From Escherichia phage ES12, in sequence record MN508614.1: 64,000 nt of DNA. One strand, given 5' to 3'. This document shows positions 4,525-53,569 of the stretch, piece after piece (the stretch's first letter is position 1; every line of letters begins with the position of its first letter). The notes under the pieces were generated by a model. It searched no databases, had not been told where the DNA came from, and worked only from the letters and a program-made list of their open reading frames with translations. The position numbers and the translations under genes were made by a program.

Positions 4525-6702
4525 TTAGGCCGCAAGGGCCTTCATAGTTTTAGCGATTTGAGAAACTTCATCATCACTTAAAGAGTTGCGATATCCGATG
4601 AAGTCGGAAACAATACGGAATTTCTTGGTAAACTCAGCAACCATTTTATCACTGTTTTTTGAAGCATTATGTGATAATTCATCAAAAAGATTAGTTACTG
4701 TCCAGATGTCATGACCGATGGTATCTTTTCCACCATTAAAATATACACCCTGTAATGAACTAACCATATTAGCGAGTCGTGTATATTCTTCAGAAACTTC
4801 ATCTACACTGAAGTACTTCATCATAAAATCTAACTCAGGATACTTGATAATTTTATCAATATATCGTTTAGCTGAACTTGAATAACCTACATACTTATCA
4901 TAATCTACATCATCAAAAGCATCTACATATAAATCACGCAAAGCTTCAAAAATACATTGGCACTGACCGAGTTCTTTTACCTTTTTCTGTAAAAGCGGAC
5001 GAATAACATAAAATTCATTAATGCCAATAAGATTAGCCATACGAATCAAAATATTCATAGATGGATGACAAAGCGATGTAGTACCATCCATAGAGAAAAT
5101 ATCAGAACGATGCATATACGCTACATAACCAGTAATTTCATCTGCTTCTGATGTGAGCGTAAATAATTCCTCTTTTTCCCAGCGTCCGTCTTTAATTTCA
5201 AACTTAAATGCTGTAGCAGCTTTAGGACGAGGAGCTTTACTTTTAACTACCTTTGGAATATAGCTTTTAACTAAAGCTTCAATTTCTGACAAATAATGAA
5301 TGTTAACTTCATCACTTTCAAACATCGCCATAATATCAGGAAGTAAATCAATCTGTGATTCTACTTCTGGGTTAATAAACAGAAGGCGTTCGTTATGATG
5401 AATATTCAAAGTGTTATTAAATTCACTATCATCTAACGCACGTGCTAATCCACGGACAATATTAACACGATTTTTAATATTATCAATAACGATATTAATT
5501 TTTGTTGCATTAATACCAAACAGACGATAACTTGATGCAACGGCCGAAGTTTCATGGCTTTGTTTAATTCGTTTCAGTCGAGGGTCAAGATTTACTTCAT
5601 ACACAACCCCCGCGTTGCATAACTTACTATCAGGTTCAAACATGCTTTGCATCTTTTTATATGACAGATTTTTAGTCGTAAATTTGACTGAATTACTAAT
5701 CATATAATCTCGAGCAGAATACCCCATCTTCATCAATTCACGATATGTGTGACGAGGAGATGTAGATTCTTTAAATCGTTTTACATCTTCATTAAATGCT
5801 TTCTCACTGAGTTCTTTAACTCGTTCAATGATATTTTTACGAGTGCGATCATCTAGTGAAAGAGCCTCGCGAGATGGAGCAATATCAAGTGAACCCATTG
5901 GAAATTTAATGTAATTCACTTCATTGCGAATGCTTAGCCAGTTACGGTCTCTAATAACACCATCGATAGGATAAACAATACCGCCATAGATAGCATATAA
6001 TCCACCACGATCTGGCCAGTATCTTTCTGGATTTACACCGTAATAGTCATCAAAATCCGGAAAATAATCAATTTCGCGGTCAAGACCATTAATGATAGCC
6101 AAATCTTTGAATGGTCGCATGATATAAGAAACTTCATAAGCAAAGTTTCTAAAGTCTTTTTCTTCAACTGGAACTACGATTTCAATACCAGTTTTATCAT
6201 TTGGACCCATTTCTTTTACGAATGTAGGTTTAATCTGTGGACCATCACCATCCATGTAAGCTACATAACCACGAATTTCACCTTTATGATACGAAGTAAT
6301 ACTAAACGTATCAGTATAACTAAACGGAGATTTAGAACCTAAACCAAATCCGCCAATGAAATCGTTAGATTCAGCCTTAGATGAACTGAAGTATGAATTA
6401 TACAGACCAGGAGAATTATCATCACCTTGAATATCAAAATCACTCATACCCGGACCAAAATCTCGACAAACAAATCGTGGGTCTAAACGTCCTGGAACTT
6501 GTATGATAAATTTTTCAGGATTTCCATTGAGAGCATGGGCATCAATCATGTTAGTAATCAATTCACGGACTACTGCGCGAATCTTGTTTGTATACAAATC
6601 AGATGATAGAATTTTAAATACTTTAGGAGATGCTGTGATGCTAAATGCTTTTGATTTAGAACCATTGCCAAGAATTGTTTCTTTTTCAGTGGTGATAATC
6701 AT
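4525..6702 (-). CDS. rIIA: rIIA protein (725 aa)
   Basis: 725 aa as T4 rIIA; between gene 39 and rIIB. Confidence 0.9.
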
Positions 6703-6712
6703 AATTTCCTCA

Positions 6713-6916
6713 TTAATTCATATTACGTTTAATAACTTCGGCAACTTCTAGTAGTTCATCTTTAGTTGCGGTGTCGGATTGAATTTTATCTCTAATATCC
6801 TTAAAGCGGTTTTTAAATTCTTCGGCTTCTCCCATATCGAAAAAGCGTTGAATGATTCTATATTCTCGATGAACTGCTTTATCAAAAAGTTCTAAATTTA
6901 CTTTATATGATTTCAT
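6713..6916 (-). CDS. hypothetical protein, rIIA.1 position (67 aa)
   Basis: ORF track; GAGGA RBS; own early promoter upstream. Confidence 0.5.
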
Positions 6917-10972: not shown

Positions 10973-11518
10973 TTAATTCAAAATAGCTACCACCGCACTA
11001 CGAGGTACTACGCTAAAATCACCTGCATGAACAACGTTCAGAAGTTCAACACCATCTTCAATCCACTGGTCTGTTACCCAACCACAGATAGGATTATCAA
11101 AAGGACGATGGATAGACACAGCAGCACACAACAGGTCTGTAGGGTCTTGTTCTTCAACTTCTTGGAACAGGATGAACTCATCTTCATAAACCAGGTTTTT
11201 CTTTATTTTGTTATTATCTAACCGGCGACCGTGGATGACGTAAGATTTATCAAACCACTCACTTTTGGCAAATTCTTCAACAATAAATTCGCCTTCGCCA
11301 AAAACATCAGTCAGAGTTTTATGACCAGAAATCAAGGCATTAGTTTTAATTTTAGGTTCAACCAGTTTGTAGGTTTTGCCGATTTCAATAGCGGTAGTCA
11401 TAGTAGGTTCCTTAATTTCCAGTGGTTTAACAGGGCATACATAAGTGCTTACAACATCAAAATCAATCAGTTTAGCTACCGGATTTGGTATGTATTCAGG
11501 ATTATAATTAAATTTCAT
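10973..11518 (-). CDS. hypothetical protein (181 aa), paralog of 10405..10896
   Basis: C-terminal VTDQWIEDGVELLNVV block shared with neighbour. Confidence 0.5.
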   Translation of the reverse strand: MKFNYNPEYIPNPVAKLIDFDVVSTYVCPVKPLEIKEPTMTTAIEIGKTYKLVEPKIKTNALISGHKTLTDVFGEGEFIVEEFAKSEWFDKSYVIHGRRLDNNKIKKNLVYEDEFILFQEVEEQDPTDLLCAAVSIHRPFDNPICGWVTDQWIEDGVELLNVVHAGDFSVVPRSAVVAILN

Positions 11519-11520
11519 AA

Positions 11521-12021
11521 TTATCTCATTTCAATAAAATCTACGAGTTCAGCATGCGATTTGCGGAACATTACTTGGTGCCCACCAATGATAACTTCAT
11601 CTTCAGGAACTTCGTATACAGCGAGATAAAATCCTTTAGAAGATAATTCTTCCCGCTCTTCTCGTGTGAACCATCTCATCATATCATACTCACTAGCGAA
11701 AGCAAAATGATAAAGAGCTATAAACCATCCTGGAATATGATATTCTACTCCAACATAATCTTTCTTGAACTTAGTATTAATTACTATATTAGCGTTTTTA
11801 ACTAATAGTTTATCTTCGTGTGGTAAAGGAATTCTTTTATTATTATCGCTATGATGCATAAAATTAGGTCTGTCATAACCTACGTGTAATAGCCACTCTT
11901 CGCTCCATGAATCTATTATACTCCTGTACGGCGTTATTTGAACACAAAGATTTCGACGTATTGTTATAGCATCTTCATAATCAAGAATACTAAACGATGA
12001 TTCAACACGATAAATTTTCAT
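11521..12021 (-). CDS. hypothetical protein (166 aa)
   Basis: ORF track; GAGGA RBS; early promoter upstream. Confidence 0.5.
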   Translation of the reverse strand: MKIYRVESSFSILDYEDAITIRRNLCVQITPYRSIIDSWSEEWLLHVGYDRPNFMHHSDNNKRIPLPHEDKLLVKNANIVINTKFKKDYVGVEYHIPGWFIALYHFAFASEYDMMRWFTREEREELSSKGFYLAVYEVPEDEVIIGGHQVMFRKSHAELVDFIEMR

Positions 12022-15129: not shown

Positions 15130-15876
15130 TTATCCTCGGATAAGTTTAAAAATTGAACAATTTAGCGGGTATCCTCTTTTCAGTTTAAGTTTATCAATAA
15201 AAGACAAATTTTGATACCGCTCTACACCTTGAATAATTTTATCACACATATCATATTGCATTTCTGCTTCTGACAGCTTTTTCACAATTTTCCAATCCGA
15301 GCCTTTAAGAAGAACGTTCAATTTAACAACTTCAGCGCCTTCTGCTATGCGAGAACCATCAATACGTGCTTTAAGTGCTATAATCCTTAGCTTAATGTCA
15401 GAGGTCTGTTTTGATTTAGAAAGCTGAGAAATGTGTTCAATTCGGTTTTCACGTTTTTTCTGTATAGCTTTAATTTGATTATAAGTCTTTTTGATTTTAG
15501 CCCATTTCTTTTCATCTAAATTTAGTTTATGAACTTTTTTCGCAGATGAACGACCAATTCGCAAAGCAAATAAATCACGCTTTTCAATCAACTCTTCTAA
15601 AGTATAATCAGAACGAAATGTATTATACTTTTTCTTTACTGCAATAACATTCCCTTTAATGTATCCAACGTTATTATCAAAACGTTCTAATGATAATTTC
15701 TCTCCTTCAATACGATTATCAAAAGGTTCTCCCGAGTAAGCACAAACTTTTTGATCTAAAATGTTCTTAATGTAATTGAAGTCTAAGTTAAAATCTTTAG
15801 AACGTCTTTTTGCAGATGCCTGAGTATGCTCTAGACGACGTTTAATTTTACGAATTTGGTTATTAGACAGCTTCAT
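15130..15876 (-). CDS. Srd-position protein (248 aa)
   Basis: Size and position match T4 srd; basic N-terminus; no motif verified. Confidence 0.45.
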   Translation of the reverse strand: MKLSNNQIRKIKRRLEHTQASAKRRSKDFNLDFNYIKNILDQKVCAYSGEPFDNRIEGEKLSLERFDNNVGYIKGNVIAVKKKYNTFRSDYTLEELIEKRDLFALRIGRSSAKKVHKLNLDEKKWAKIKKTYNQIKAIQKKRENRIEHISQLSKSKQTSDIKLRIIALKARIDGSRIAEGAEVVKLNVLLKGSDWKIVKKLSEAEMQYDMCDKIIQGVERYQNLSFIDKLKLKRGYPLNCSIFKLIRG

Positions 15877-15912
15877 ATTTTTCTCACATCTTACGGACGG
15901 TTAACTACTTAT

Positions 15913-15942
15913 ACTATAACATTTTTACCTTAACTTGTAAAC
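15913..15942 (-). promoter_or_regulatory. T4-type early promoter (GTTTACA, 18-nt gap, TATAGT)
   Basis: actata 15913-15918, gtaaac 15937-15942. Confidence 0.5.
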
Positions 15943-15956
15943 AACTTTATGAAAAA

Positions 15957-15981
15957 TGCTTTAAAACTTTCATGGTATAAT
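15957..15981 (+). promoter_or_regulatory. consensus MotA-dependent middle promoter on PLUS strand (aaaTGCTTTA, 12-nt gap, TATAAT), antisense to modA
   Basis: tgcttta 15957-15963, spacer aaactttcatgg, tataat 15976-15981; no plus-strand ORF downstream. Confidence 0.5.
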
Positions 15982-15998
15982 GAATCTAAGTCCTTCCA

Positions 15999-16601
15999 TT
16001 ATAGATTAAATCCTTCAAAATCAAGAGTATAGATAGTGTATGTTGAATACTTTTTATACTCGTATCTATCCGCAATTCTAAATACACTTCCAGCTGGTAT
16101 CATTACTTCTTGTTCATCTGAAACTAATTCCATATTACGATAGCGATGGCTATCCGGAAACTTAAAGTTTGGATTGTATTCTTTACAGCGTAGAGCTTTT
16201 ATAGCATACTCCTGGAAATTAAACACCATAGGAGCTTTGAATTCAAAAATAACTTGTGTGTTGTATTCTAATCCAGAAGCAAAATGTAGAGCTATATTTT
16301 TATCATATGAAGCTGATACTACTTTATCAAATGTAATAATATCAATTCCTTGATTTAACACCTGTTTAGTCTCAACTGGAACACCTCTCCAAAGAGGTTT
16401 ATCGTTTGGAACCAAACGAGATTTGACTATTTCATTTAACCAAGAATGATCGTCTGGTTTATTAGTAATACAATGAATTAAAAGTTCAATTTCAGATAAA
16501 TTAAATCCTTCAGAAAGTAATTCTTCACGAATAGAAGCACGCACCGATGCATCCATTGATTTGATTTTAAAATCTTTTAATTGCATTGCTGAATATTTCA
16601 T
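15999..16601 (-). CDS. modA: ADP-ribosyltransferase ModA (200 aa)
   Basis: 200 aa as T4 ModA; paired with 207-aa neighbour; R / STS-like / E pattern. Confidence 0.65.
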   Translation of the reverse strand: MKYSAMQLKDFKIKSMDASVRASIREELLSEGFNLSEIELLIHCITNKPDDHSWLNEIVKSRLVPNDKPLWRGVPVETKQVLNQGIDIITFDKVVSASYDKNIALHFASGLEYNTQVIFEFKAPMVFNFQEYAIKALRCKEYNPNFKFPDSHRYRNMELVSDEQEVMIPAGSVFRIADRYEYKKYSTYTIYTLDFEGFNL

Positions 16602-17221
16602 TCAACTACCTCAATATCATACACTTTAAATGTTCCAAATGAATCGTGTAATTTTTCTTTTGAAATAGAAGTTATTCTATACTTTCCAATTGGAATCATC
16701 CATTCTTGTTCACGCACAATCATCATTAAGTTATCAGTACGCTCTGAATCTAATCCATCAGTATCTTCATATGTATACTTAAATTCAGTATTAGGAGAAG
16801 AAAGTATAATATCGCTGATATGGTCAGAATAATTAAAAGCTTTATCAGTTTTTAAGCGAAATATTATTTCAGTGAAATACTCAACATAAGAAAAACCACA
16901 TGCTGTGTGCAAACTAGTAGTAAATGAATCTACTCTGTTCGTTGAAAACACTTCTCCGACTTGTAAATCTTTAATGAGTTCTTTTGTCGATTTTGATATA
17001 CCACGATATAGCTGATAAGGCGATTTAGTTAAATGCTTTTTAACGATTTTATTCAACTGCCGATGAAGAGCTTCATTCTTTTTGGCTTCTATACACTGCC
17101 AAAGAACTGACTGTTCAAAGTCAGTAAATTTTTCACAGACCTTTTTATACATATCATATTGAAAATCAACGCTTTCAGCTTTTATAGATAACTGTTCAAC
17201 ATCTGCAGGATTAATAATCAT
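16598..17221 (-). CDS. modB: ADP-ribosyltransferase ModB (207 aa)
   Basis: 207 aa as T4 ModB; YRG...STN...E motifs; overlaps modA start. Confidence 0.65.
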   Translation of the reverse strand: MIINPADVEQLSIKAESVDFQYDMYKKVCEKFTDFEQSVLWQCIEAKKNEALHRQLNKIVKKHLTKSPYQLYRGISKSTKELIKDLQVGEVFSTNRVDSFTTSLHTACGFSYVEYFTEIIFRLKTDKAFNYSDHISDIILSSPNTEFKYTYEDTDGLDSERTDNLMMIVREQEWMIPIGKYRITSISKEKLHDSFGTFKVYDIEVVE

Positions 17222-17247
17222 GATAGCCTCCGTATACTTCAGAAGCT

Positions 17248-17277
17248 ATCATATCATCGTTAGAAAGGAAAGTAAAC
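17248..17277 (-). promoter_or_regulatory. T4-type early promoter (GTTTAC, TATGAT)
   Basis: atcata 17248-17253, gtaaac 17272-17277, 18-nt gap. Confidence 0.5.
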
Positions 17278-17288
17278 AACTTTTTGAA

Positions 17289-17471
17289 TTATTTTGTCCA
17301 GGGAGCCCAAGGCGGAGGGTCAAGATGGTATGAAGCTAGTTCTTCTAGAAGAGCATCTGGGGCTTCAATTCCATAATTCTGTAATACTATACGGTACTCT
17401 TTCTTATAATCACTAGAATCATTCTGGATATTCGTAGAATGATTATCTTCTAACATCTCAAATAAATCCAT
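17289..17471 (-). CDS. hypothetical protein (60 aa)
   Basis: ORF track. Confidence 0.4.
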   Translation of the reverse strand: MDLFEMLEDNHSTNIQNDSSDYKKEYRIVLQNYGIEAPDALLEELASYHLDPPPWAPWTK

Positions 17472-17479
17472 ATTAATTC

Positions 17480-17950
17480 CTAGCGATAAAAACCAAATTG
17501 ACGATTAGCTTCAATAATCTTTCTTTCTTCTTCGGACATTCTCCAGCGTAGTCCAACATCAAAATGAGCCCAGACCATCCTAACAAATGCATTTATATCT
17601 TTAATATCTTCAATAATGAATGTTTTACTTTTAGAAGGTTGACTCGCTAATTTAACTTTATCGTCTTCAAACATGTCAAAAAGACCATATTCATGAGCTC
17701 TTTTATAGCCTTTAATAGTTAAAGCTTCAGAAGAAGAAAATGGTGAATCTGTATTCTGCAAAATATCTTCAGTATGCTTTATAATTAGAATAACATTTTC
17801 TGGATATTTTCTTTCTTTTATATCTTTAATTAAAATATCCGGATTTTCTGCTAAAGGAATAATTAACGAGCATTTTTTATCAAGTGTATTTACTGATTTA
17901 CCTTCTTTAGACATAAATCCTATTGAATACAGTTTTGCTACTTCAATCAT
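17480..17950 (-). CDS. hypothetical protein (156 aa), mrh region
   Basis: ORF track; synteny with T4 mrh cluster. Confidence 0.45.
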
Positions 17951-18103
17951 GTGATTTCCTCTTGCCTACTAATGGACCATCAGGAATTTTGTTTTCCTGG
18001 ATATATTTCTCATTTTCTTCCATCATTTTACTACCAATTTTAAGAAGCAAATCCATTGCTTCATTTGCTTTTGCTTTGGCCTCTTCTAACGTCATATCTT
18101 TGC

Positions 18104-18307
18104 TCATGATTTATCACCGTAAATATCTCTCATTAATTTAAGAGCTGAGCGCTCTAATTTCTTTTCTTTCTCAGCACTAATCATTGATTTCATCCATTCT
18201 TCCGATTCGTTCTGCATTTCTTTATTTGCCTGTTCAACCCAACCATCATCAATATACATTGAGTTTGGTCTATTGAACCATTCAAGCATTTTCTTCAGAA
18301 CTTTCAT
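18104..18307 (-). CDS. hypothetical protein (67 aa)
   Basis: ORF track. Confidence 0.4.
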
Positions 18308-18779
18308 TTGTTTTACCTAAAACAATAGTAGGAGCATCGTCAAATTCATGAATTTTTAGCAATTTTGGATTTAAATTATTCCATACATAATAAATAAAGT
18401 ATGATAAAGCATCTTCACTCGCAATTATAAATTTATTTCCTTCATTTATTTTCCAGTCATATACTGAATCGTACGAATAAAAAGATAAAGGATTACCATT
18501 ATATTGTTCTGCGCTAACATTAATGTATTCGGATTTAGTAAATGCTTCAATTGCTCTAAACGGACTATTTGGCACAGTTTCAATAATTCCGATCTTTTTA
18601 AGTTTTATTTCAACATCTTCTGGAACTGGCATTGAAACGAAATTTTCTACGAGATACATAGGGTTACAATAACCCTTATCAATCACTACGGCTACAGTAA
18701 TTGGAACATCTTTAGCAAACGACATGCTATTACTGCTAATATACATTTCAAACAAAATCGCTTCCATAATTTTCCTCAA
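18282..18779 (-). CDS. hypothetical protein (165 aa)
   Basis: ORF track. Confidence 0.5.
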
Positions 18780-19117
18780 TCACAAGATGTAGATGAACAA
18801 CTAGAATCACAAGAACTTCCACATGAATCACCTGCCCATACATGAACAGGAACATTGGTGTCATATGAATCAGAACTAGACTGTGTATTCTGTGCATTAG
18901 ATGATGTAGTAGGTACTGACCAGCGCCAAGGATTTTTATAATATTCTTGGGCTTCTTCATAAGTCATAGTAACTGCTTCTACTGTTCCATCTCCCATATA
19001 AACATATTCAACTACAGTTAAAGGAAGATAGTCATTTGAAATAGGAACTACACCTTCTCCCGGAGTTGTAGAGAAAAAATCTGTAAAGAAATTTTTAAAC
19101 CAATTAAAGATAAACAT
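18776..19117 (-). CDS. hypothetical protein with Cys/Ser-rich C-terminal tail (113 aa)
   Basis: ORF track; tail [15 protein letters not shown]. Confidence 0.5.
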
Positions 19118-19329
19118 TACAAAAAGCCTCTTTGAAATTCGACTCTTTGAAATCCACCCCAGTCAGTATATCGCATTTCAGCATTGAACTCGACTGAACC
19201 ATCTGCATGCATCATGAATGAATGCGTGACGACATCACAATCCCAGCTTTTCATACCCCATTTATCAGAGATAGCTTTATCAAGAACCTTCTGAAGGTCT
19301 TCATTTGGTTTAATCCAACGATTTAACAT
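19117..19329 (-). CDS. hypothetical protein (70 aa)
   Basis: ORF track; early promoter upstream. Confidence 0.5.
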   Translation of the reverse strand: MLNRWIKPNEDLQKVLDKAISDKWGMKSWDCDVVTHSFMMHADGSVEFNAEMRYTDWGGFQRVEFQRGFL

Positions 19330-19355
19330 AGTGTTCTCCTCTATAAGATATTTTT

Positions 19356-19385
19356 ATTATACCACACTCATTTTGACATGTAAAC
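19356..19385 (-). promoter_or_regulatory. T4-type early promoter (GTTTACA, 18-nt gap, TATAAT)
   Basis: attata 19356-19361, gtaaac 19380-19385. Confidence 0.55.
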
Positions 19386-19398
19386 CATAAAATGAAAA

Positions 19399-19420
19399 AA
19401 GGAATCCCGAAGGATTCCTT
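19399..19420 (-). terminator. intrinsic terminator after soc (aaggaatcc-cgaa-ggattcctt)
   Basis: 9-bp stem, UUCG-type loop, A6 run on plus strand before hairpin (U-run in minus RNA). Confidence 0.65.
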
Positions 19421-19427
19421 AAATTAT

Positions 19428-19685
19428 TTAACCACCTACACCAGGTGTAGGTGTAACAGTCCAAAGACCTTCATTAGCAGTGATCCATTCAGTACGCTGA
19501 TTTTCTTCATATACTGTAGAATATGCTGCTTTTTCAGAAGGGAATGTCTGATAATGAGCACCAGAAATTTTGTGAACATCAGAATAAAGAGGGAAAGCTA
19601 CAGAAATTTCTTTACCCTGAATTGTACCACCATCAACTGCTTGGTCAAATGTTTTGATATTAACATAACCGCGAGTACTAGCCAT
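19428..19685 (-). CDS. soc: small outer capsid protein Soc (85 aa)
   Basis: MASTRGYVNIKTF...ISVAFPLYSDVHKISGAHYQTFPSEKAAYSTVYEENQRTEW recognised as Soc; late promoter upstream. Confidence 0.9.
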   Translation of the reverse strand: MASTRGYVNIKTFDQAVDGGTIQGKEISVAFPLYSDVHKISGAHYQTFPSEKAAYSTVYEENQRTEWITANEGLWTVTPTPGVGG

Positions 19686-20102: not shown

Positions 20103-20620
20103 TAATAACCTCGGTCTTGACGAGCGAAGTTTTCAGCATTTTTCAGATAATAAAGTTTAAAGATTTCTTCAGCCGTAAGACCGAGGCCTTGGAACATGTT
20201 CAGAACGAAATGAAGAATATCAATCATTTCGAATTTAATTTCCAACTGGTCTTGTGGAGACAAATCAGTAATCAGAGTTTCACGTCGTTCACCATGTTGA
20301 GCTTTCCAAGGCTTCCATACAGCAGATGCATCTTTTTCACCATTGCTCATACCACCAAGAGAAGTCAATAGTTCGCGGAATTCATCATCAATATAATCTT
20401 TCTGATTACGCAGCCAATCAACAACTTCACCCGCAGTAGCCAAATCATCAGGATGACGGTTATATTCAGGTTTATCTTTAGCTAAACGAACCTGCAGAGA
20501 TTTCTGCATATCAAGCATAACTTGCAACGGGTCTTTTTCATCACCGAGAATATCCCAGTATTCATTTTGAGCTTTATCAGCGCCTTCAATCAGTTGTGAA
20601 CATTCATTAAAGTATGCCAT
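20102..20620 (-). CDS. 56: dCTP pyrophosphatase gp56 (172 aa from internal ATG)
   Basis: MazG-like all-helical NTP-PPase sequence; ORF 20102..20713 trimmed to MAYFNEC start downstream of middle promoter; T4 gp56 is 171 aa. Confidence 0.8.
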   Translation of the reverse strand: MAYFNECSQLIEGADKAQNEYWDILGDEKDPLQVMLDMQKSLQVRLAKDKPEYNRHPDDLATAGEVVDWLRNQKDYIDDEFRELLTSLGGMSNGEKDASAVWKPWKAQHGERRETLITDLSPQDQLEIKFEMIDILHFVLNMFQGLGLTAEEIFKLYYLKNAENFARQDRGY

Positions 20621-20653: not shown

Positions 20654-20680
20654 AATTATACAATAAATATATAAAGCAAT
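20654..20680 (-). promoter_or_regulatory. MotA-dependent middle promoter for gene 56 (tatTGCTTTA, 11-nt gap, TATAAT)
   Basis: plus-strand attata ~20654-20659 and taaagcaata ~20671-20680; coordinates +/-1. Confidence 0.6.
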
Positions 20681-35430: not shown

Positions 35431-35454
35431 ATTATACTCTAATAAATTAAAGCA
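35431..35454 (-). promoter_or_regulatory. MotA-dependent middle promoter (TGCTTTA, 11-nt gap, TATAAT)
   Basis: plus-strand attata 35431-35436 and taaagca 35448-35454; between gene 46 stop and 45.2 start. Confidence 0.55.
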
Positions 35455-44806: not shown

Positions 44807-46620
44807 TGGTGCTTAACCCTATGCATGATTTCTTTATTTTTGCCGAGATTAAATCCGCGTTCGTTCGGATTTCCCAAATAACCACATGTTCTTCTTATTG
44901 TGTTCATCTTTTTAGGATCAGTTTCTCCACAAATAGAACAAACAAATCCGTTTTCAGTAGGAGTCATTTCATGGGTACTTCCACATGTAAAACATTTATC
45001 TACTGGCATATTAACACCAAAATAATCTAAATGTTGTGCAGCATAATCCCAGACAGCCTCAAGACCTTTTAGGTTATTTTTCATATCAGGAAGTTCAACA
45101 TAAGAAATGTGACCACCTGTCGCAATGAAATGATATGGGGCTTCGCGAGAAATCTTTTCAAACGGAGTAATATTTTCTTCTACTGAAACATGGAAACTAT
45201 TAGTGTACCAGCCTTTATCAGTAACATCTTTTACACTTCCATATTTTTCAGTATCAAGTTTACAGAAGCGATAACAAAGGTTTTCAGCGGGAGTAGAATA
45301 CAAGCTAAAAGCAAAACCGGTTCTTTCAGTCCACTGTTTAAGACGAGCATTCATTTTAGTTAAAATTTCCTGTCCAATATCACGACCGACAAGAATATTC
45401 AATTCGTGAATACCAATGTATCCTAGGGACACTGAACTTCTACCGTTTTTAAATAACTCAATTATGTCGTCATCAGGTTTAAGACGAACCCCGAATGCAC
45501 CTTCTTGGTAAAGAATAGGAGCAACAGTCGCTTTAACTCCTTTTAATGAACTAATTCTACACATCAAAGCTTCAAAACATAAATCCATTCGCTCATTGAA
45601 CAATTCGATAAATTTCTGTTCATTGAACTGTGTTCCAATATAAGAATCTAATGCGATACGAGGAAGATTCAGTGTTACAACACCAAGATTATTACGTCCA
45701 TCAAGAATTTCATTACCAGTCGAATCTTTCCATACGCTCAAGAAACTACGGCAACCCATCGGAGAAACAGGAATAGATGAACCGGTGATAGCTTTATTGT
45801 TCTTAGCTGAAATAATATCAGGATACATTCTTTTGCTTGCGCACTCTAGAGCAAGCTGCTTAATATCATAGTTCGGATCGTCTTTATAAAGATTAACACC
45901 TTCTTCAACAAACATAACAAGCTTAGGGAAAATAGGAGTTATCCCATCACGACCAAGACCTTTAATACGATTTTTCAGAATTGCTTTCTGAATCATTCGT
46001 TCAGTCCAGTCAGTTCCCGTACCAAATGTAATTGTTACAAAAGGCGTTTGTCCGTTTGAACTAAAGAGAGTGTTTACTTCATATTCATAAGCTTGAAATG
46101 CATCGTATACGTCTTTTTCTGTTTTAGATTGAGCATAATTCAACGCATCAGCGATTTGCCATTTTTCTGCATCCTCAATATGTTTTGCATAGGTGCGTTT
46201 AACATAAGGAGAAAGTACTTTATCTACATTCGCAAAAGTCGTTCCGCCGTATTGATGGGAAGCAACTTGCGCAGTAATTTGCGCCATAATTGCAGTAGCA
46301 ACGCCAATTGATTTAGGAGTTTCAATCTGTGCATTACCAAGCTTAAATCCGTTTTCAAGCATTCCTTTTAAATCTACTAAACAACAATTAGTAAATGGAA
46401 GAGCAGGGGAATAATCAATATCATGGAAATGAATAATTCCGCTTTCATGCGCTTTCATAATAAAAGACGGGACCATATTTTTGGCAATGTGTTTAGACAC
46501 AATACCAGCCATAAGGTCCCGTTGAGTTGGAAAAACACGAGAATCTTTATTAGCATTCTCGTTTAAAAGGTCTTTATTAGTTTTATGAATCAATCCTTCA
46601 ATTTCTTTTTCAATTGTCAT
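44803..46620 (-). CDS. nrdD: anaerobic ribonucleotide reductase NrdD (605 aa), uninterrupted
   Basis: C-terminal glycyl-radical and CxxC zinc motifs (CSICG...RTCGYLG); 605 aa; no intron. Confidence 0.9.
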   Translation of the reverse strand: MTIEKEIEGLIHKTNKDLLNENANKDSRVFPTQRDLMAGIVSKHIAKNMVPSFIMKAHESGIIHFHDIDYSPALPFTNCCLVDLKGMLENGFKLGNAQIETPKSIGVATAIMAQITAQVASHQYGGTTFANVDKVLSPYVKRTYAKHIEDAEKWQIADALNYAQSKTEKDVYDAFQAYEYEVNTLFSSNGQTPFVTITFGTGTDWTERMIQKAILKNRIKGLGRDGITPIFPKLVMFVEEGVNLYKDDPNYDIKQLALECASKRMYPDIISAKNNKAITGSSIPVSPMGCRSFLSVWKDSTGNEILDGRNNLGVVTLNLPRIALDSYIGTQFNEQKFIELFNERMDLCFEALMCRISSLKGVKATVAPILYQEGAFGVRLKPDDDIIELFKNGRSSVSLGYIGIHELNILVGRDIGQEILTKMNARLKQWTERTGFAFSLYSTPAENLCYRFCKLDTEKYGSVKDVTDKGWYTNSFHVSVEENITPFEKISREAPYHFIATGGHISYVELPDMKNNLKGLEAVWDYAAQHLDYFGVNMPVDKCFTCGSTHEMTPTENGFVCSICGETDPKKMNTIRRTCGYLGNPNERGFNLGKNKEIMHRVKHQ

Positions 46621-53515: not shown

Positions 53516-53544
53516 AATAATCTCAATTAAAAGGGCTTAGAACC

Positions 53545-53569
53545 ATTATACCATCCTTGGTATAAAGCG
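53545..53569 (-). promoter_or_regulatory. candidate promoter (CGCTTTA box variant, 12-nt gap with CCAAGGATGG, TATAAT)
   Basis: attata 53545-53550; degenerate copy of the 6942/51156 cassette. Confidence 0.35.

Follow-up and report, generated by a model that had tools for sequence, protein, structure and literature searches.

Bacteriophage T4 is the reference system for phage transcription, and its middle promoters follow the consensus (a/t)(a/t)(a/t)TGCTT(t/c)A, then, after 12 +/- 1 bp, TAtaaT (Hinton 2010, PMC2988021). The mapped ones read as minus-strand promoters, and those of the prereplicative gene block drive genes in the direction of early transcription. Two of them are the closest described relatives of the element considered here. 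PuvsY, whose start was mapped at T4 position 115371 (Hinton 2010 Table 1, PMC2988021), is the promoter of oriF; it lies on the coding strand, serves also as the promoter of the uvsY mRNA, and has a demonstrated unwinding element and origin downstream. P34i, the promoter of oriG (also ori(34)), is of the MotA type, lies inside a late gene, belongs to a proven origin, reads on the minus strand like the other mapped middle promoters, and yields a transcript opposite to the gene that it crosses, and is thus a T4 precedent for an antisense middle promoter. More distantly comparable are the cis antisense RNAs of the type I toxin-antitoxin style, which are short, structured and terminated, and whose promoters lie at the 3' end of genes toxic to E. 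coli, on the strand opposite to these, and the PeSL and PmSL cassettes, short repeats that sit between genes, bear a promoter and occur several times in a genome, of which PmSL, the version with a Mot box, was described in vibriophage nt-1 (PMC4122927).

The DNA analysed here, a 64,000-nucleotide stretch of Escherichia phage ES12 (MN508614.1) referred to below as the window, is that of a Tequatrovirus, and it contains a promoter of the middle type that points against the surrounding genes. All genes near this promoter, including dda, dda.1, srd, modA and modB, are on the minus strand. Open reading frames and the T4 annotation place modA, encoding an RNA polymerase ADP-ribosyltransferase of 200 aa, at 15999-16601 and modB, encoding an ADP-ribosyltransferase of 207 aa, at 16598-17221; modA would be the first gene crossed in antisense, and modB would be crossed as well by a transcript of about 1.2 kb. 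On the other side of the spacer lies srd (248 aa, 15130-15876, identified in the same way), whose promoter, of the sigma-70/T4-early type (TTTACA-17-TATAGT with TG, 10/12 matches in a consensus scan), occupies 15913-15941 on the minus strand. This early promoter is divergent from the antisense middle promoter and back to back with it, and its upstream (UP-element) zone overlaps the MotA box of the latter. The record of phage DalCa annotates a minus-strand early promoter in this spacer and no other. Over the 1.3 kb tested, the modA/srd region is 100% identical to that of Escherichia phages ES19, ES21 and ES26 and 95-99% identical to that of about 500 Tequatroviruses. The genes motA and asiA lie outside the window; T4, in which the promoter is identical, encodes both. 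A separate observation concerns the 5' leader of srd, which contains a 10-nt motif at 15890-15899 (CTTACGGACG on the plus strand, CGTCCGTAAG on the sense strand) that recurs in six of nine genera, with G>A in one Jiaodavirus, and that could fold into a small hairpin, CGTC-CGTAA-GAYG; in Jiaodavirus it falls within the spacer of the antisense promoter.

On the plus strand the antisense promoter reads, in order, aaaTGCTTTA, aaactttcaTGg, TATAAT, gaatct and AAGTCC. Its MotA box, aaaTGCTTTA at 15954-15963 (AAA at 15954-15956, the TGCTTTA core at 15957-15963), is an exact consensus match centred near -30. The spacer of 12 nt (15964-15975), within the required 12 +/- 1, ends in TGg at 15973-15975, and since the TG stands at 15973-15974 the -10 element is an extended one; the hexamer TATAAT itself (15976-15981) is a perfect sigma-70 element, and TGgTATAAT as a whole spans 15973-15981. 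In MotA box, -10 element and spacing alike the site thus has the properties of a T4 middle promoter. The sequence, gap and positions given in the earlier note are correct, and its description of a textbook middle promoter of the MotA-dependent consensus, antisense to modA and modB, is borne out by the exact match and also by the identity with T4, the occurrence in nine genera and the paralogy with PuvsY set out below.

The window has three occurrences of the pattern TGCTTTA-N11-13-TATAAT, where 0.04 would be expected, and none of 100 shuffles reached three. The other two exact matches, at 20655-20678 and 35431-35454, are on the minus, coding strand, and the antisense promoter is the only one on the plus strand; the claim that it alone on that strand has TATAAT at the right spacing therefore holds for the window. 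What is rare is TGCTTTA combined with TATAAT at this distance, not TGCTTTA itself, which is present 35 times in the window; 20 of these copies are on the plus strand, not the four or so that had been counted there in the regions first scanned. The match at 20655-20678 on the minus strand is a promoter of the P56/oriA type upstream of gene 56 (ATG at 20619), with an exact TGCTTTA-N11-TATAAT, where T4 has TTGCTTACA. In that part of the window soc.1/soc.2-like ORFs stand in place of segF/gene 69, and dam appears to be absent, as the primase gene follows directly after gene 56.

In T4 the promoter is identical, with the box at 11866-11872, the -10 element at 11885-11890 and the predicted start at 11897, which corresponds to 15988 of the window. 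The T4 records AF158101 and M30001 carry no annotation at the site, and none of the 58 promoters in the table of mapped T4 middle promoters (Hinton 2010 Table 1) starts near 11897, the nearest entries being Pdda.1 at 11138 and P56/69 at 16813. When the 58 positions were compared with the sequence of AF158101, nearly all led to a plausible minus-strand middle promoter; a few with evident coordinate typos did not. Among these misfits, the entry for PnrdD+, printed '6440', should read about 46440, and that for P52, printed '65227', about 165227; there is no promoter at the position given for Pcd ('132839'), and a consensus site gives a start near 132780. The pattern GCTT[TC]A-N11-13-TATAAT has nine matches on the minus strand of T4 and two on the plus strand. 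Seven of the nine coincide with listed start sites, the one at 46441 fits the PnrdD+ entry printed '6440', and the one at 132780, just upstream of cd, is probably Pcd, so that all nine appear to correspond to mapped promoters, two of them through the reading of a typo. Both plus-strand matches are unmapped; one is the site between mod and srd, the other a sister copy located between genes 3 and 2. Although searches guided by the consensus went on for decades, the mod-srd site is absent from the mapped list, which may mean that it was tested and silent, or that it was ignored for want of a following gene. For T4 in general, the NAD-cap preprint reports 150 phage transcription start sites from dRNA-seq (GSE255091), 22 of them antisense, and antisense transcription is not a subject of a T4 omics paper of 2022. 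In phage RB69, a supplementary table of Nolan et al. 2006 contains two computational predictions, 'Pm:12081 (+)' and 'Pm:79256 (+)', which that paper neither discusses nor backs with an experiment and which, judged by strand and approximate coordinates only, look like the homologous sites between srd and modA and between genes 3 and 2.

The resemblance to PuvsY extends well beyond the consensus. From -15 to +14 the antisense promoter matches the oriF promoter in 27 of 29 bases; 21 identical bases (TGGTATAATGAATCTAAGTCC) are common to both, and the stretch from -15 to +6, TGGTATAATGAATCT followed by AAGTCC, is the same in the two. They thus have in common the MotA box, a spacer of 12-13 nt and TGGTATAAT, which implies the same context of the start site; the site between mod and srd differs from PuvsY in being antisense and without a gene to serve. 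As the PuvsY start was mapped and the sequence around it is identical, A15988, 11 nt outside the modA stop codon, is the likely start of transcription, in agreement with the start at about 15988 proposed beforehand. The initial transcribed sequence from this position, AAGTCCTTCCATTA at 15988-16001, is common to a subfamily of PuvsY-type promoters, whose signature, TAnnnTG[AG]nT[CT]T[AG][AG]G.., is present at four T4 sites: the mod-srd site, the gene 3/gene 2 copy, PuvsY and PnrdC.7. Related initial transcribed sequences follow the gene 3/gene 2 copy and PnrdC.7 of T4 and the PuvsY, gene 3/gene 2 and rnlB promoters of a Mosigvirus, a phage that has at least four related promoters: PuvsY, one in the spacer of genes 3 and 2, one before rnlB and one behind modA. 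P34i is outside the TCTAAGTCC subfamily, unlike the promoter described here. The window has its own copy of PnrdC.7, TGGTATAATGGTTCTAAGCCC at 53533-53553 on the minus strand, which belongs to the subfamily. Paralogues within one genome are alike just past the -10 element, where two of the T4 copies have GAATCTAAGTCC and two of those in Mosigvirus have GGTTTTAGGTC, and this resemblance hints at gene conversion or co-selection among promoters of the PuvsY type.

The sister copy is a second orphan consensus promoter, located outside the window on the plus strand of T4 (AF158101, approximately 75965-76020) between the late genes 3 and 2, with a start at about 76000. Its sequence is TGCTTTA-13-TATAATGGGTCTAAGTCCCTTCCATTC, its MotA box abuts the ribosome-binding site of gene 3, and it is kept in Mosigvirus L019 at 6698-6755 on the plus strand. 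It shares with the mod-srd promoter the subfamily signature TGCTTTA-13-TATAATGGGTCTAAGTCCCTTCCATT and the orphan, antisense, intergenic placement; it differs in facing the late genes 2 and 4, and for that reason would make an antisense, 'anti-late' RNA.

A scan of IMG/VR for ModA returned six near-identical loci only, and GenBank phage records were therefore used for comparison. These covered nine genera of Tevenvirinae (Tequatro-, Dhaka-, Mosig-, Jiaoda-, Kanagawa-, Gapriver-, Gelderland-, Teguna- and Winklervirus), with ModA proteins in the relatives from the ModA search 26-35% identical to that of the window. All nine genera share the gene order mod-srd-dda.1-dda, and in all nine the spacer between mod and srd contains GCTTnn-N11-13-TATAAT in the antisense orientation, never in the sense orientation, at a chance of 0.0007-0.0026 per spacer. 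The distance between the two elements is 12-13 nt in five genera and inside the scanned 11-13 in all nine. GCTT is present in every one of the nine genera, and TATAATG is invariant in each genus examined. An alignment of the spacers of five genera has 24 invariant columns, 17 of which make up TGCTTT, TATAATG and some bases beside them, the other seven being mostly the srd start codon and ribosome-binding site; the promoter spacer varies in sequence between these genera. The predicted start lies 6-40 nt outside the mod stop codon in every one of the nine. In four genera with short spacers the MotA box begins 14-17 nt from the srd start codon, and srd must therefore be transcribed across the promoter. 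A function on the opposite strand was considered and rejected: TGCTTT and TATAATG at 12-13 nt are found only on the plus strand, and the reverse complement has neither an early nor a late promoter consensus. Since mod and srd always stand side by side, conservation beside the one gene is not separable from conservation beside the other. In a Krischvirus, which has srd and no mod gene, the spacer upstream of srd lacks the motif, and this group, that of RB49, is reported to be without motA and middle promoters (PMC1524935).

Constraint is visible within a single genus as well. Among about 500 Tequatrovirus genomes, the 50-nt half of the spacer that contains the promoter shows no change in 321 records and falls below 95% identity in a single one; for the remaining 73 nt, which comprise the early promoter and the srd leader, the corresponding numbers are 91 and 263. 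The variants are located in the promoter spacer, upstream of the box, or at a degenerate position of the box itself, a T>C change at this degenerate consensus position being the sole variant seen inside the MotA box. Being identical in T4, kept in nine genera and a near-copy of the oriF promoter, the antisense promoter is almost certainly real.

The earlier note had seen no plus-strand ORF for the promoter to serve, and the comparison agrees: only short GTG/TTG ORFs follow downstream on the plus strand, and none is conserved between genera. There was no Rfam match at E <= 1 over 15700-19600, and a small protein or a known RNA downstream was rejected on both grounds. No canonical plus-strand terminator was found between 15988 and approximately 19400; the plus-strand hairpins in this interval are weak and none has a proper T-run, which leaves a defined short antisense RNA unsupported. 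The downstream sequences are unalignable between genera, and a conserved RNA structure was not found. With neither a conserved ORF, an Rfam match nor a canonical terminator, the predicted RNA would be non-coding and of undefined length. The first strong structure that a long plus-strand transcript from 15988 would meet is a perfect 9-bp GC-rich hairpin, AAGGAATCC-CGAA-GGATTCCTT, at 19399-19420, just downstream of soc; it is followed by a good T-run on the minus strand only and has a poor T-tail on the plus strand.

These features are best explained by an active, MotA/AsiA-dependent promoter whose non-coding RNA is antisense to modA and modB and probably helps to silence these early, toxic genes, a reading to which we give about an even chance. 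Host RNA polymerase, with AsiA and MotA attached (sigma appropriation), would from about the early-to-middle switch onwards bind the -30 box and the extended -10 element, initiate at A15988 and transcribe the plus strand head-on into modA and, if unstopped, into modB as well. The length of the RNA would probably be set by Rho or by collisions, in keeping with the lack of a defined intrinsic terminator. Its role would be to help shut off the ADP-ribosyltransferase genes once their job is done, through interference of convergent transcription with polymerases coming from the early mod promoters, through pairing with the mod mRNA and subsequent double-strand-specific decay, or through both; to block translation, the RNA would have to extend as far as the modA ribosome-binding site, at least 600 nt from its start. 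Firing in vivo, dependence on MotA, the start site and the silencing role are all what we infer from the DNA. As expected of a cis-antisense system, the promoter stands opposite its target and points into modA, and its product has no coding capacity; a defined 3' end or a conserved RNA structure was not seen. The arrangement thus resembles that of the type I-style antisense RNAs, with an opposite-strand promoter at the 3' end of a gene toxic to E. coli and a non-coding transcript, but the mod site has no such structure or terminator, and the gene that it faces is an early phage gene with a timed shut-off, in contrast to a stable toxin mRNA. For an RNA that has no terminator, no conserved structure and no Rfam family, silencing is suggested as a role purely by inference. 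Deletion of modA is reported to be without effect on early shut-off (PMC2988021), and the regulatory stakes may therefore be small.

Beside an antisense RNA, the earlier note had raised an R-loop primer transcript as at oriF/oriG. The main rival to silencing is accordingly that the promoter is of the origin type, forming a persistent R-loop just downstream as PuvsY does at oriF and P34i at oriG, and priming a rightward leading strand or creating a recombination hotspot, with no role for a regulatory RNA. The antisense promoter does have the middle-mode promoter character of the R-loop origins, its 27/29 identity is with the oriF promoter itself, and it is one of four PuvsY-type members in T4. 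Moreover, the primer RNA of oriG also runs opposite to a gene, the late gene 34, and oriF and oriG need just a middle promoter and an easily unwound downstream region whose sequence is not specific (PMC3016281). The region from +1 to +60 is 72% A+T and the 8th least stable of 59 promoters, a measure that ranks oriF 16 and oriG 45; since known origin promoters are not separated from ordinary ones by it, this ranking carries no weight. Neither annotations nor published accounts put an origin at T4 11.9 kb, however, and in reviews and records the five active origins lie elsewhere; a literature search for the positions of oriB and oriD found none. Closest is oriA in the gene 69/56 region (T4 15.6-16.8 kb), whose priming proceeds from P56/69 in the minus direction. 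The antisense promoter converges on it instead of diverging from it, and PnrdC.7, a fellow member of the subfamily, is an ordinary gene promoter. We regard an origin function as unlikely on this balance. Coincidence of the site with oriA itself was rejected, as the latter, annotated at T4 16763 and at gene 69/56, is minus-primed and 3.7-4.9 kb away. A broader proposal, which we consider a rather doubtful one, is that the PuvsY-type cassette (MotA box, TGGTATAATG and a start region of TCTAAGTCC..TTCCATT) marks a special set, and that the two plus-strand orphans would be unrecognised R-loop or primer sites launching rightward replication or recombination near oriA and oriE; if so, they would add new elements to the origin map of T4.

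Alternatively, the site might act mainly through the protein bound to it and not through an RNA, as a traffic element at which polymerase with MotA/AsiA, whether parked there or initiating, occludes the upstream zone of the srd early promoter and blocks read-through from mod into srd-dda at middle times, that is, as an insulator. The overlap of the MotA box with the UP-element zone of the back-to-back srd promoter and the distance of 14-17 nt between box and srd start codon in the four short-spacer genera would suit such a role. So would the fact that dda.1-dda are served by a middle promoter of their own inside srd, on account of which read-through into them would be dispensable at middle times. 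The perfect TATAAT, the extended -10 element and the conserved initial transcribed sequence nevertheless exceed the needs of a mere binding site, and the insulator is quite improbable as the main function, although the sequence alone does not separate it from the antisense model.

It is very improbable that the site is a silent or nearly neutral relic, a PuvsY-type cassette copied into the spacer by recombination and functionless or kept off in vivo. In favour of a relic, repeated promoter cassettes (PeSL, PmSL) are known to have spread among T4-type phages (PMC4122927), the mapped T4 list does not contain the site, and modified T4 DNA is known to leave some sequences that resemble the middle consensus without promoter activity (PMC2988021). 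Such a relic nevertheless fits the conservation poorly: place and orientation are the same in nine genera with otherwise unalignable spacers, TGCTTT and TATAATG are invariant, constraint within the genus is much stronger than in the half of the spacer next to it, where there is a real early promoter, and the inactive cases in the literature have GATT boxes, not GCTT (PMC2988021). The mod-srd promoter is like the PeSL and PmSL cassettes in being repeated within the genome (four PuvsY-type copies in T4), but it has no terminator stem-loop directly upstream, no terminator-like hairpin having been found in 15877-15957 on either strand, and its position is conserved across genera and does not mark the boundaries of indels. 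Both the insulator and the relic are less likely than silencing or an origin function.

The middle-promoter class is itself known; what is new is a conserved promoter of the MotA type that is unmapped and antisense. If it fires into modA and modB, a very well-studied genome would gain a new regulatory element, a strong middle promoter in the opposite direction to the mapped ones, and with it a concrete candidate, open to test, for a share in the shut-off of early genes, which still lacks an explanation; alternatively, the promoter would be an extra R-loop or origin element related to oriF.
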